Source: Strigamia acuminata (lineage: Eukaryota). Taken from it: 64,000 nucleotides of DNA. The DNA lies in assembly GCA_949358305.1 (NCBI GenBank), contig OX442314.1, forward strand, positions 29,202,001 through 29,266,000, read 5' to 3'. The position numbers and the translations under genes are program-made. The notes beneath the pieces are model-generated. The model saw only the letters and a list, made by a program, of their open reading frames with translations. It was not told the DNA's origin and did no database searches. Shown here in pieces: positions 43,360-59,708 of this stretch. Within the stretch, counting starts at the first letter, position 1. Every line of letters starts with the position of its first letter.

Positions 43360-46128
43360 TCAATCCTTCTTGCTGGGACCCGACGCTGGATCCATCGCCT
43401 GGGCGAAACTCACTCCAGGGACGGGCGGCTCAGCGCCGGGCGGCACAACGCCGGGCGGCAAAACCAGATCTCCAACCAAGGCTGAAGACTGGTCGCGGGG
43501 GTCCTCGTGCTCGGAAATAAAGCACAATTCGTGGCCGCCGGCTGGCTCGTACGGGGCACGTCTCCTCTCATGCAGCCAAACCCGCGGAATGAACGCCGAA
43601 AACCCGGAATTGGTGTGCCGGATCGCGTTCGCCTCCGCGGCTGTTCGGGGCGCACGATGGGCCCTCAGCAAACGCTGATGGAGGATCAAATCGGTGGTCT
43701 GGCGCACCTGGTTGTGTAGCCAAACAAATACCGATTTCCCTTTGTCTCTCTGGGCGAGAATGAACTTCCGCGTCGCTGTCGTCATCGACAGCTGAGAGAA
43801 CTCGTCACATAACTTCTCATAATAGTTCGTCTGAGGTTTCGCCGCTTTCGCTGGCTTGGCGCTCTTCGGAACTACCGCCTGCTTGACCGTCTCTTCCCGT
43901 GCTTCTTGGGCTGCGGGAGGCGTCAGGCTTTGGCGAGCGGCGGACATCGTTGGCGGCGTCCGGCACAGCAGGCGTCTCGGCTTACCCGCCGCATTTGATA
44001 GGACGGGTGTCTGTGGTGCCGCCGCTGGTGGCATCGGTGGCGGCGGCGGAGGTGGAGTTGGGGCTCCACGTGAAGCAGTCGAAGAGGCGGCGTCGCTCTC
44101 CATCGGCTCTTCACTCGTGACCATCATCGCGCACGGCTGCGTCGATGGTGTCGGCGCCCACGTGGTAACGGCGTGGCGGAAGGCCATGCTCCGCAACTTG
44201 TACCCCTCCCATTCGGGGTTCACCACGTCCCGGGTCAGCTCGAATCGAGTCATCGCCGGGTTGGGGAGAATGGCGCTCCATTCCCCAACAAGTGCACGAG
44301 GTATCTGTACACCTTCTCGGTCTACGACGGACCAGCAGGCCATCGCCTGTCGCCCGACCCCAAAGAGCGAAGGGGTTAACAGCTGGACCATGATTTCGGT
44401 CAAGGCCAGCTGCAGACGACGGCGGTTTACTGGATTGCTGCGGTCGGAATCCTCAGCGAACGCACGCGAGTGATGTCGCATCATCGAAATTCCCCACTCG
44501 ATGAAATGGCGCTGAGTGACGTCGGCGCCCTGCAGAGCAGCGGCGGCGGCCCTCGGGTCCTCCATCACGAATGAGAAGGCCAAGAGCTCTTCGATCGATG
44601 GATTGGCTGCTTCTCGAGCCAGCCGTGCGTTTTCGTCACGCTGTTCATACCACATCGCGGTGCGGTCGTGTCTTGCCGTGCTCGGGTAATATTCTCCGGT
44701 CCGGGCGTTATGGCATTCCCGCGCAATACTCAGGTGCACGGGCAACATCACAGAGTCGTCGACGGCCAAGTCCGGCGTAGTGCTCGAACCTGGCATCGGC
44801 GGCGGCGGCGGCGGAGGCTGCGTCGGCGGCGGCAGCGTCAATGACTGCTGTGCCGGCAACGGCAGCGTCGCTTGCGTCTCAGTCGCCGTGACCTGAGGCG
44901 CCGGAGTGGGTGTAACGGTGCTCGTCGGCGGAACGACGGCCGTGGGTCGCGAATTCACATATTCGCTCAACCACCGTGCCACTTCGTGTGGAATCACGGT
45001 ACCATCCTCGACGATGCCCATCTTGCGGGCGAACTGCATCGCGGGGTCGAAACGCGACAATTTCTTGCGTTTCATCTGAGTGATGATCTCGCGAAGGTCC
45101 CGTGTGTCTGGCGCTAGGACGCGACGCTCTCCGGAAGATCTGCCACTCGACTTCGATCGTGCTTCTCTCGCTTCCTTCGCTTCTATTGCTTTGAGAGCGT
45201 GTTCGGGAAGGGGAATTCCCCGCGCCTCGCAGCGAGCGAAATACCGCTCTTTGCGGTCTTGTTTCCGCTGCTCACGATGAGTCAGCGGGCGTCTGCCGGC
45301 ACGGGGACGAGAGACTCGCTCTTCGTCACCCGAAATCCAGACTTCTCGAGTCTCTTTACCGTCTTTCATCTGACGGTTGACAAACACCCTTGGTCTGGTG
45401 TAATTCGCGGAGTCGCGCGGTGGCTGCGCTGACGTTCCCGCTCCATCGTTTACGGTCGAGTGCCTTTCGACGCACTGTTTCTTCGACCGGCCCGGGGAGC
45501 GCGATTCGCTGCCCCCGGTTCCCTTAGAGCGCTTGCGCTTCCGTGGGAAATTATATTTGGGACCGAGAATTCCCAAATAATGTAACTGCCACATTTCGGC
45601 TTGTGACGTGAGAATCCCCATTCTCGGTCGCCACTGTGGCGTAACTTCTCCTCGCCGAATCTGCTCGCACCACAGATGTATGTCTGCGGTACTCATGCCT
45701 TCGTCCTGCAAGATACGCTCTGCAACCGCCGGCGCAGTGTCAATTAGCTGCTGGCGGTAGTGTTGATACACTTCTTCGCGGGCCTCCTCGGTCTCGGCCG
45801 CTTGCCACGCGAACAACACATGTTCCTCCACTGGCCTGCCGGAGTATTGGCTCGACAGGGCCGAGTGGAAGATTGGCGACTTTGGGTCGTCGCTGCGAGC
45901 TAACTCTGCAGCGACAACAGCTCGAACCGGCTCCGGAAATGCATCCAGGAGAGAGCAGTCACCTACCCATCGCTTGGCGAGGGCGCGCGAAAATAATACG
46001 CGAATGCGATATGGATTGGCATCACCGCCAAAACAACGGCGGAGAAAATCGGGCAAGACGCCTCGATAAATGCCAGCCCGCACAATGCATGCGGGGCTGA
46101 GCGCTCCCCACGTGTTTCGGAGCTCCAT
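43360..46128 (-). CDS. Gypsy B accessory ORF (~920 aa, unknown function, Pro/Arg-rich, not env-like)
   Basis: Long ORF ending 40 bp before the 3' LTR, starting right after TTTTGTTTTCCATCATTGCAG|ATG; NLS-like PRKRKRSK; poly-Pro tracts; no TM segment. Confidence 0.85.
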   Translation of the reverse strand: MELRNTWGALSPACIVRAGIYRGVLPDFLRRCFGGDANPYRIRVLFSRALAKRWVGDCSLLDAFPEPVRAVVAAELARSDDPKSPIFHSALSSQYSGRPVEEHVLFAWQAAETEEAREEVYQHYRQQLIDTAPAVAERILQDEGMSTADIHLWCEQIRRGEVTPQWRPRMGILTSQAEMWQLHYLGILGPKYNFPRKRKRSKGTGGSESRSPGRSKKQCVERHSTVNDGAGTSAQPPRDSANYTRPRVFVNRQMKDGKETREVWISGDEERVSRPRAGRRPLTHREQRKQDRKERYFARCEARGIPLPEHALKAIEAKEAREARSKSSGRSSGERRVLAPDTRDLREIITQMKRKKLSRFDPAMQFARKMGIVEDGTVIPHEVARWLSEYVNSRPTAVVPPTSTVTPTPAPQVTATETQATLPLPAQQSLTLPPPTQPPPPPPPMPGSSTTPDLAVDDSVMLPVHLSIARECHNARTGEYYPSTARHDRTAMWYEQRDENARLAREAANPSIEELLAFSFVMEDPRAAAAALQGADVTQRHFIEWGISMMRHHSRAFAEDSDRSNPVNRRRLQLALTEIMVQLLTPSLFGVGRQAMACWSVVDREGVQIPRALVGEWSAILPNPAMTRFELTRDVVNPEWEGYKLRSMAFRHAVTTWAPTPSTQPCAMMVTSEEPMESDAASSTASRGAPTPPPPPPPMPPAAAPQTPVLSNAAGKPRRLLCRTPPTMSAARQSLTPPAAQEAREETVKQAVVPKSAKPAKAAKPQTNYYEKLCDEFSQLSMTTATRKFILAQRDKGKSVFVWLHNQVRQTTDLILHQRLLRAHRAPRTAAEANAIRHTNSGFSAFIPRVWLHERRRAPYEPAGGHELCFISEHEDPRDQSSALVGDLVLPPGVVPPGAEPPVPGVSFAQAMDPASGPSKKD

Positions 46129-48221
46129 CTGCAATGATGGAAAACAAAATAATTACTAACATCGCCAATAACACGGAGATAAATAAGGGTGGGCTCGAGG
46201 AACGTCGCCAAAACGTGCGGCCGTTCGTCGAGTCCGATTCCTGTTCATTGATTCGTCCTTGTCAGGAAGAAAGAGTCTTCTTGGCACATCTGGCTCACGT
46301 CCAATTATGACGGTTTACAATGGCTATAAATGCCTATTTTCTATCAAGAAAGCGCTGTTGCGCCAATATGATGGTATTTTTACAATATTCTGTGTAAAAC
46401 TGATAAATGTCTAGAATAAAGTCATTTATGATGTTTCAAATACAAAGATGTTCGTTTATTAAGAATAAACACTAATTTCCACATGATACTAAAAGTATCA
46501 CGGCATAATTACGAAGATTCGTCTGCTAAAACCCGCATTTGTCAATGCTCCATATTGCCACTAGATGGCGCGATCGCAATTAGCGATAAATTCGAATACG
46601 AACTTGAAAACCTCATGATTAAATATAAACGTATATTTAATCAAGTGAATAAATTGTGTTAAATATTAATATAAATATATATTAAATATCTGACATTGTT
46701 AAATACAATGTAACTTCCATTTCTGCGGGACAGAATGTTTAGCGATCAATCGGTCAATCGATCAATCTGATTGGTGGAACCCATTTCCGGTCCTGGGTAT
46801 CCAGTTCCGGTTGTAACAAGGATTAGCATAATTTGCATAAATGCTCCTCCGTATCCACTTCCGGTGATACGGGATTGGAGGGATTCGTGGAACCCATGTT
46901 CCAATTGGATGACTGGATTAATCCTTAAATCCAGTCAGGTTATATAAACCCAAACAATCGGCCATTCCGCAGCTCTGTTTGATTATTTCTGTTTGGTATT
47001 GTTACTTAAGAAGTATGATTCGTTGTTCACGTAAAAAAACCTTTTGGTTCTTTGTTGATTTATTCGCAAAGAACCGTTGCATGATTCTACAGAATCATGC
47101 CACCGCCGGCAATTGAAGTCGAAGTGCTGGGATTATTATGTTGCATAAATGTTACAGTCTACGGTTGCGACGCCGAAGGAGAACCCGCCGTTGTGCAATT
47201 CAGTATCCTCCGGACAGGACCAAGTTGTCTTTTTCGGTATGAACGTATTCCGTTACCACGAGTAGCATCGGTATTGTTGAGAATCGGTTCCTTCACCTGA
47301 TGGTGCCAAAGCAGTCTGTTTTACAGTAACCACGAGTAGCACCAAGTGTTTGGCAAGCTGATTCTCATGGTATTCGATGCCAAAGCAGTCGGTCTATTAT
47401 TAGTACCGCGAGAGATAAAACTGCTGTGCGGAGCCGCGAGCTATCGACCCCTGTGTACGTGGTACCGTCAACCACTCGATGGACGACCGTGCTGCGACGC
47501 CGGGGACGCTTGATACCGTTCTGCATGGCAAGGCGTATATTCTAATCGATGGCAATTGTGTGTTGCGACGGGAAGCTTAATCTTCATTTTATTTATAACA
47601 GCAAAACTTAAACTCGACAACCAGTTGGACCAAAATCAAGTGAGAAGACTTAATCTCATATTGAACTCAATATAACCGATAAGTTGACGACAACTTATTC
47701 CCGAAATATCTAAATAAGAATTCACAACGATATGAATTAAATATAATTCATAAGTGGAATATTGATAAGTAAATGAATACATTTACTTACACCAATATCC
47801 TCCCAAAGTTGTGGCGGTGCAGACAAAGTCAACCGCAATGCTCAGATCATTCGATTTATCGACGTGCGATAGTTTACACAGCGAACCAAGGAAACCAGCG
47901 AAGCCGTATCGGACTCCAGGACACAGCCATCCGGCTTAAGATGACATCTATAATCAGGTCGAGCGATGGGGAAACCGCTCCCATATTCCAGACCCGTAGT
48001 GATATTATTCTAGGGCCAGTTGGCCAATTCTTTGTATAGTTTAATAGCTGATTTAACTTGCCAAATGTCGGCATTAGTCCTATGTATAATTTAGCTCATC
48101 CATATTGTTTGCCAACAATAAACTGTCTTGTATTTATCTCGTATTGTATTCACTGTTTATTTATTGCGATCTCTTCCCGGTACCATTGTTAAATGGGAGT
48201 TGTGGTCGTCACCGTCACACG

Positions 48222-59400: not shown

Positions 59401-59612
59401 CTTCAAGGAGCGAGGCGACATTAAGTCTGCGATCGCGTCCTTGAAAACAAACAATAAGGAGAAAATACAATCGCTTGCGCGATCGTGGGTATTAATGCAT
59501 CGGTTATACTCTATTGCGAACGCAGAGCGTTCATGTCAGGTATTAGTCAAACATAAAATTTTTTTATTCAACAGCACGGAGCTGAGTCTCATGCGCCGAT
59601 GTCGACTACTAC

Positions 59613-59708
59613 CTGATCGGGTGGAACCACGTTAACGTCCTGGTCCCAATTTTCGTTCGCATTATGCTCGATTTCAAGCATCTCCTCGTCCCCTCCTTCC
59701 TCAGCCAT
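59613..59708 (-). CDS. Candidate first coding exon of the gypsy B accessory gene
   Basis: ACG-ATG-G start, 32 codons MAEEGGDEEMLEIEHNANENWDQDVNVVPPDQ, then CAG|GTAGTA donor in phase 0, compatible with the acceptor before 46128. Confidence 0.45.

Follow-up and report, generated by a model that had tools for sequence, protein, structure and literature searches.

Variable third genes other than env have already been published for Ty3/gypsy retrotransposons of rotifers and plants, and the concept as such is not new. The closest examples are the bdelloid rotifer families Juno, Vesta, and TelKA, whose third open reading frames (ORF3s) are family-specific, are not env, and were gained independently (PMC5408684). 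The subject here is a comparable gene, ORF3-B, of the element gypsy B (B in the following), which lies in a stretch of 64,000 nucleotides (nt) of Strigamia acuminata DNA (assembly GCA_949358305.1, contig OX442314.1, positions 29,202,001 to 29,266,000). This whole stretch is called the window, and all coordinates count from its first letter. ORF3-B is a gene under purifying selection in a multi-copy family. Like B, the three rotifer families are animal Ty3/gypsy-type elements with a slot behind pol that holds differing non-env genes in related families, and the work on them is the published form of an idea put forward in an earlier, sequence-only reading of this locus, namely that the slot is swappable. 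However, what the rotifer ORF3s encode can be recognised (GDSL esterase, DEDDy exonuclease, coiled-coil or membrane proteins), whereas ORF3-B codes for an orphan of 922 amino acids (aa) without an enzyme or membrane feature and, unlike them, has a candidate starter exon behind pol.

The role of CERV in the Cer1 element of Caenorhabditis elegans comes nearest in function. CERV is a spliced orphan nuclear protein with a basic nuclear localisation signal (NLS) and folded blocks on flexible linkers; it is needed for the export of the unspliced genomic RNA and is highly divergent even between Caenorhabditis species (PMC10309623). The ORF3-B protein, an orphan too and likewise from an animal gypsy element, would probably resemble it in these respects. 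CERV differs in having 517 aa from five exons, the first of which are common with gag, whereas the place of ORF3-B is behind pol, where a candidate start of its own is available. No CERV-like match to ORF3-B was found in a set of 5.8 billion sequences or among 1.84 billion representatives. By analogy, CERV would be the best functional model for ORF3-B. The export of intron-containing genomic RNA and the escape from silencing are known for few long terminal repeat (LTR) retrotransposons, CERV being a rare case.

Other elements share single aspects of the layout. In plants, gypsy elements carry extra ORFs in the region from pol to the 3' LTR, gene23 in Grande and TRP28 in Retand (PMC7264820, PMC11963269), and gene23 has its own promoter and a suggested nuclear role (PMC7264820). 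The likeness to B is a conserved accessory ORF in a long region between pol and the LTR, but the plant ORFs are plant-specific and run antisense to gag-pol, whereas ORF3-B is in sense and matches no Pfam family. The third gene of Oikopleura Tor3b and Tor4b is expressed from an internal promoter within pol or directly after it, that of the Tor4b env lying behind pol (PMC4402516). This is also the layout proposed for B; unlike the ORF3-B model, however, the Oikopleura gene codes for a true membrane Env and its internal-promoter transcript showed no splicing. In Drosophila elements, splicing links the env exon with exons that lie before gag or inside it (PMC12992720), and a survey of invertebrate Ty3/gypsy env covers the F and gB (herpes gB-type) types (PMC13524379). 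These env genes resemble ORF3-B, on its two-exon model, in occupying the same slot and starting from a short upstream exon, but that exon lies before or in gag, and their product is a glycoprotein whose signal peptide, furin site, and membrane anchor are all absent from ORF3-B. What is new in B is the protein, its large size, and a candidate starter exon and intron wholly behind pol; it is no new class.

B lies on the minus strand and runs off the window, in the order pol, spacer, candidate starter exon, intron, ORF3, polypurine tract (PPT), and LTR (Table 1). Pfam places its protease (PR) at residues 2-89, reverse transcriptase (RT) at 256-410, RNase H at 473-603, the integrase (IN) zinc finger at 796-855, and the integrase core at 868-965, the domain order of a Ty3/gypsy LTR retrotransposon, and a PPT followed by a 3' LTR with an approximate far end is present as well. 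ORF3 is placed inside B because this PPT (43332-43323) and the LTR (from 43320) come after it; contig cover goes up across the LTR stretch. As the sequence-only reading had it, a large ORF of about 920 aa co-oriented with pol stands behind an acceptor: it has 922 aa, with the AG at 46129 and a pyrimidine tract upstream. From stop to stop (46152-43360) the frame spans 930 codons, and each of the other five frames is broken by 16-32 stops. This length is far beyond chance: when the region was shuffled 2000 times, the longest stop-free frame was 418 codons (median 146).

Table 1. Coordinates of the elements, genes, and candidate exons in the window.
Feature	Position	Strand	Details
B pol (PR-RT-RNase H-IN, SH3-like tail)	60187..63999	-	open to window end; gag and 5' LTR outside window
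B spacer behind pol	59709..60186	-	478 nt; three upstream ATGs; one CAGCTG at 59829
B candidate starter exon	59613..59708	-	96 nt, 32 codons, phase 0; 11 D/E, no K/R; donor CAG/GT (slash marks the cut)
B candidate intron, 5' part	58991..59612	-	622 nt, 34% GC; starter frame read-through stops after 7 codons
B candidate intron, 3' part	46129..46305	-	177 nt; pyrimidine tract, acceptor CAG at 46129
ORF3-B main exon	43360..46128	-	922 aa from ATG right behind AG at 46129; stop at 43360
B polypurine tract	43323..43332	-	27 nt beyond ORF3 stop; end like that of A (GGGGGACG preceding LTR)
B 3' LTR	42311..43320	-	about 1010 bp, far end approximate; AATAAA at 42466; second LTR outside window
Element C	46306..58990	+	LTRs 46306-48219 and 57077-58990; target duplication CAAT at 46302-46305 and 58991-58994; antisense within candidate intron of B
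Longest ORF of C	54976..56481	+	501 codons; 37-residue motif in common with N-terminus of A Gag (E 6e-7)
Gypsy A, LTRs	23253-24933, 35359-37039	+	1681 bp each, 1 difference
Candidate micro-exon of A	32508..32514	+	7 nt; ATG AGT G then GTAAAT; in phase with acceptor 32891
ORF3-A	32892..34756	+	620 aa behind phase-1 acceptor at 32891; three CxxC motifs
Copia element, intact	18158-22902	+	1328-codon ORF; 227-bp LTRs 99.6% identical; 5-bp target duplication CATTT

Selection on ORF3-B can be read from its other copies. Contigs were compared from three runs of one species and two studies (X1 and X2 being one study, and one run possibly the source of the window), and contig depth was not taken as copy number. 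ORF3-B was present in 30 of 30 bins of the three runs, on 3684, 1422, and 681 contigs that were from 99+% to less than 90% alike. A further run of unknown kind (X6), with 10 of 30 and 4 of 30 bins covered, was not interpreted. Among the 40 best-supported of 358 differences, 32 fall within the ORF. Synonymous changes account for 25 of the 32 and third positions for 24, against an expected synonymous share of 25-30% (p 3e-10 to 3e-8), and it is on this ground that ORF3-B is taken as a selected gene. The three in-ORF joints with known filler among those listed (-204, +6, and +48) are all multiples of 3, and no small indel lies inside ORF3-B among the 12 listed of 49. A point to be set against selection is that, of two in-ORF skips with unknown filler, one has a length (134 nt) that would break the frame. 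None of the listed joints deletes ORF3-B, in a comparison in which a deletion from pol to the PPT could not have appeared, the stretches being compared separately. Selection across copies, together with the lack of a membrane segment, bears out the earlier proposal of a true non-env accessory gene. The B family is a young multi-copy animal family.

The protein carries a basic NLS-like cluster, PRKRKRSK, at residues 195-202 and two runs of seven prolines at 438 and 692, and it lacks a membrane segment, all as described in the earlier reading. The region around 274-325 is predicted to form an Arg-rich helix (10 Arg in 30 residues from 274), and a low-confidence model puts helical blocks at about 1-190, 460-620, and 770-840 on Pro-rich linkers. 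The candidate starter exon would add an acidic, Trp-bearing leader. Judged by its sequence, ORF3-B is not env, because it has no membrane-length hydrophobic segment and no furin motif and its leader is acidic. The threshold for a membrane helix is usually a hydropathy of 1.6; the peak over 19 residues is 1.41, at residue 574, and no C-terminal membrane anchor is seen. No furin site of the form R-x-K/R-R occurs, the signal peptide expected of Env was not found either (no signal-peptide predictor being applied), and there is one N-glycosylation motif.

Searches for relatives of the protein came back empty. Pfam profiles gave 0 families at E<=1, and thus no env family, GDSL or DEDDy domain, or WH2. 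No homologue was found in the 5.8-billion set (507-1614 aa only), with phmmer among the 1.84 billion representatives, in the ESM Atlas (whole protein and residues 450-880), or in viral and metagenome contigs, and the best hits were at E 0.067 in PHROGs and E 4 among PDB sequences. The structure models, with a mean predicted local distance difference test score of 43.6 (full length) and 52.0, are too poor to use. With the full model, a fold search returned 4 BFVD matches at E<=0.001, all with a template-modelling score <=0.08 and a root-mean-square deviation (rmsd) >49, and none in the PDB; with the N-terminal model, the best match had Z 4.3 and an rmsd of 4.6 over 75 residues. Such model-based searches are no demonstration of a new fold. 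The structure prediction and remote homology search called for in the earlier reading thus gave no relative and no usable fold. No literature on the B lineage or the ORF3-B protein was found, in a search outside of which subscription papers, repeat databases, and supplements may hold it.

ORF3-B is probably a two-exon gene with its junction from 59613 to 46128. The phase-compatible ATG exon that had been pointed out at 59708-59613 is indeed 96 nt long, ends in phase 0 before a GT, and is in frame with ORF3-B, and the intron, put at about 0.8 kb without C, computes to 795 nt. Splicing of this GT-AG intron would put an acidic leader on the protein and bring it to about 954 aa. Among the copies, all 3 differences listed for the starter exon are synonymous (p 0.005-0.016), a change at -3 of its ATG retains the purine, and the single change listed in the seven read-through codons past the donor is non-synonymous. 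Among the GTs of the region that follow a G, the 59613 donor scores highest. The GT at 59004 reaches the same score but was rejected for the C at -1. Of 12 indels listed out of 35, 7 fall in the 5' part of the intron and 0 in the starter exon. The in-phase ATG exon, with its synonymous differences and its kept purine, lends the two-exon structure indirect support, and the splice junction is a predicted one.

Several points weigh against two exons. The absence of the 12 listed indels from 96 nt is compatible with chance. Differences are about as dense in the starter exon (3 in 96 nt) as in the intron, and the synonymy test covers three sites only, among the differences listed, beyond which there were 126 further rows. 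The donor at 59613 is weak at +4 to +6. Also, an in-frame ATG (46128) immediately follows the acceptor, which makes the starter exon unnecessary for an open frame; this ATG has C at -3.

The spacer in front of the starter exon may be an internal promoter or the 5' untranslated region of ORF3. Given its three ATGs upstream of the starter exon, the message most likely begins at an internal promoter near that exon or is brought to it by an additional splice. A single CAGCTG stands upstream of the candidate starter exon in both spacers, at 59829 (-) in B and at 32274 (+) in gypsy A, which may be chance. The copy in B fits a Drosophila core-promoter E-box motif.

Element C inserted later, between the candidate exons of B, and uninterrupted copies of B exist elsewhere. 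In run X2, 3 contigs continue past 58991 with letters identical to window positions 46272-46301, which is B without C, and CAAT is duplicated at both ends of C; its insertion between the exon candidates, as first proposed, is thereby confirmed. In run X3, three listed contigs cease matching at 46293-46304. A contig of 548 letters (depth 63.4, about 84-87% alike), treated as a single contig from its equal length and depth in two separate comparisons, covers the start of the main exon and the 5' part of the intron with a shorter stretch between, and this divergent contig remains similar up to 20 nt upstream of the acceptor at 46129. The LTRs of C have 3 differences in 1914, and its termini, primer-binding site (PBS), and PPT resemble those of gypsy A. 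No pol was found in C, which has one long ORF only; this ORF appears to repeat a short motif that the N-terminus of A Gag carries once. These features suggest that C is probably a young non-autonomous LTR element of the lineage of A and B. An internal tandem duplication of 3258 bp (3.26 kb) in C, 99.9% identical, may have arisen recently or may stem from the assembly. With 12.7 kb of C in its candidate intron, the copy of B in the window is probably no longer a working element.

Gypsy A, the second Ty3/gypsy element in the window, provides the comparison for the slot. The Pols of A and B are clearly related, as stated earlier: both motifs quoted for them (HGHPLxxHAG and HIxSNxxxGITAxxAxKRDGP) were found again, and the two are 36% identical. 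For integrase, A is the best match of B at 41% identity, against <=37% among the ten best listed. The RT phylogeny that had been suggested (RT-RNase H, FastTree; 4 of 122 rows dropped for short matches and no named reference elements included) places A and B as sisters among 118 sequences with a support of 0.96. By these sequence comparisons, A and B form one lineage. The third genes are another matter, with no similarity between ORF3-A and ORF3-B (best E 0.37), in agreement with the first impression. ORF3-A has three CxxC motifs and no poly-Pro, whereas ORF3-B has no CxxC and two poly-Pro tracts. No homologue of ORF3-A was found either (searched at 341-1085 aa), its zinc-ribbon matches being weak and below the cut-off (Anti-TRAP E 0.0065). 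The ORF3-A frame of 632 codons has its first Met at residue 316 and would therefore need a splice or a non-ATG start. With the candidate micro-exon of A, the starter-exon layout behind pol looks shared by A and B. A three-exon model for A (start 32062) was rejected for an in-frame stop in the middle exon.

Relatives further away are of a different kind. Loci with flanks numbered 36 from metagenomes and 1 from a virus. Their integrases are mostly 22-31% identical, as against 43% between A and B, and on this basis they lie outside the A/B lineage; the search for flanked loci turned up none closer. None of the 37 matched ORF3-A, ORF3-B, or the ORF of C. Some distant gypsy-like metagenome loci carry long ORFs behind integrase: L011:5271-7805 (845 codons), L022:3733-5268 (512+), and L019:1804-3183 (460+). 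These ORFs gave no Pfam family above the cut-off and are unrelated to ORF3-A and ORF3-B by tblastn. Of the 120 Pol relatives listed, five carry names, and all five come from arthropods. The PBSs of A and C are alike and presumably resemble tRNA-Gln; that of B lies outside the window. The LTRs of A and C start with TA (not TG) and end with CA, with 4-bp target duplications (23253, 35359, 46306, and 57077). Members of the Osvaldo lineage have LTRs of about 1-2 kb, mostly a 4-bp target duplication, and invariantly a tRNA-Lys PBS (PMC3286476). In length and duplication the elements of the window agree with that lineage, with LTRs of 1681 bp in A, 1914 bp in C, and about 1010 bp in B and 4-bp duplications at A and C.

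The explanation favored here, tentative and just short of evenly balanced, is that B is a multi-copy Ty3/gypsy retrotransposon whose selected ORF3, likely of two exons, likely codes for a nuclear accessory protein predicted to aid the synthesis or export of the element's own RNA. The ORF3-B message would start in the 32-codon exon behind pol, from an internal promoter or by a further splice. An intron inside a mobile retroelement requires a means of keeping the genomic RNA unspliced, and the intron within the genomic RNA of B would pose the same problem that Rev solves, since unspliced RNA must exit the nucleus. ORF3-B could then be a nuclear regulator of this RNA, either a Rev- or CERV-like export factor or a Tas-like activator. 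This reading is suggested by the need for the intron to stay in the packaged genomic RNA and by the precedent of CERV, and the basic NLS-like cluster, the Arg-rich helix, and the helical blocks on flexible linkers fit it. Weighing against it, the function is read from motifs only, with no homologue and poor models.

The main rival for the function is that ORF3-B is an anti-silencing or counter-defence protein, which would keep small RNAs or chromatin from silencing the element. An orphan, family-specific, probably nuclear protein with different content in the sister A is what an arms race would be expected to produce, and the family has many copies; but most of the differences are synonymous, amino-acid changes are not in excess, and no known suppressor domain was found in Pfam or PHROGs. 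This rival is unlikely, though one to be reckoned with. Similarly unlikely is the rival for the gene model, in which translation begins at the ATG at 46128 (922 aa), the splice donor lies in the 5' LTR or gag region as in errantivirus env, and the ATG at 59708 opens an incidental short frame. The in-frame ATG is there, the 5' half of B with any donors lies outside the window, and in Drosophila the env exon does join exons upstream of or within gag (PMC12992720). Against such a splice speak the starter exon with its 3 of 3 synonymous differences and kept purine at -3, the C at -3 of the ATG at 46128, and the matching starter-exon layout behind pol in A. The two runs of seven prolines and the acidic Trp-bearing leader have also been considered as those of a cytoplasmic movement factor that recruits the actin machinery to move particles inside cells or from cell to cell, given their presumed resemblance to actin nucleation factors. 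This is improbable in view of the strong NLS-like cluster and the lack of a membrane anchor and of a match to WH2 or anything else in Pfam. A highly diverged envelope or small fusogen would suit the slot between pol and the 3' LTR and the probable splicing, but it is largely refuted by the lack of a membrane-length segment, of R-x-K/R-R, and of an env family match, by the single N-glycosylation motif, and by the acidic N-terminus.

How the two sister families came to hold unlike genes is a separate question. It is possible, though still on the doubtful side, that ORF3-A and ORF3-B go back to a single ancestral third gene, from which both have diverged past recognition with no swap. Third genes that sit at the same place and in the same orientation in sister lineages, with a starter-exon layout that looks alike, would suit this, as would Pols of only 36% identity and the divergence of CERV between Caenorhabditis species (PMC10309623). 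On the other side stand the unlike arrangements of CxxC and poly-Pro and the GC content at fourfold sites, which is 0.66 in ORF3-B against 0.47 in pol of B (p 2e-9), a wider gap than that of 0.52 to 0.44 in A. Both the unlike architecture and the fourfold-site GC, raised in ORF3-B, favor separate origins of the two genes. High fourfold-site GC alone is no mark of a foreign donor, because the copia element in the window reaches 0.62 in a genome of about 33% GC. For the swappable slot proposed earlier, sister lineages with unlike third genes are established and swapping is plausible, on the basis of two elements; with two families only and Pols 36% identical, replacement and fast divergence look the same. 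ORF3-A and ORF3-B, differing genes in the same place in sister families, are a concrete pair with which to test this. A more far-reaching possibility, held to be rather unlikely, is an undescribed "complex" animal gypsy lineage, foamy virus-like in having a self-contained accessory gene (own promoter, starter exon, and intron) behind pol, in which sister families would hold unrelated large nuclear effectors and ORF3-B would found an RNA-export or anti-silencing family.

The remainder of the window consists of duplicated DEG/ENaC-type genes around a nest of LTR elements, namely copia, gypsy A, gypsy B, and C within B. Parts of the DEG/ENaC-type genes form a segmental duplicate (4912-8431 and 38283-42253, 88-96% identical) that flanks the nest on both sides, and an additional ENaC-like frame lies at 13283-13759. 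An exon of a patatin-like phospholipase gene is found at 1277-1777 (+; Pfam Patatin, E 1.5e-6). There are also inverted-repeat elements, resembling miniature inverted-repeat transposable elements or foldback elements, at 9048-10677, 13791-13969, and 15697-16252, and 21-bp tandem arrays at 710-1205 and 3961-4514.

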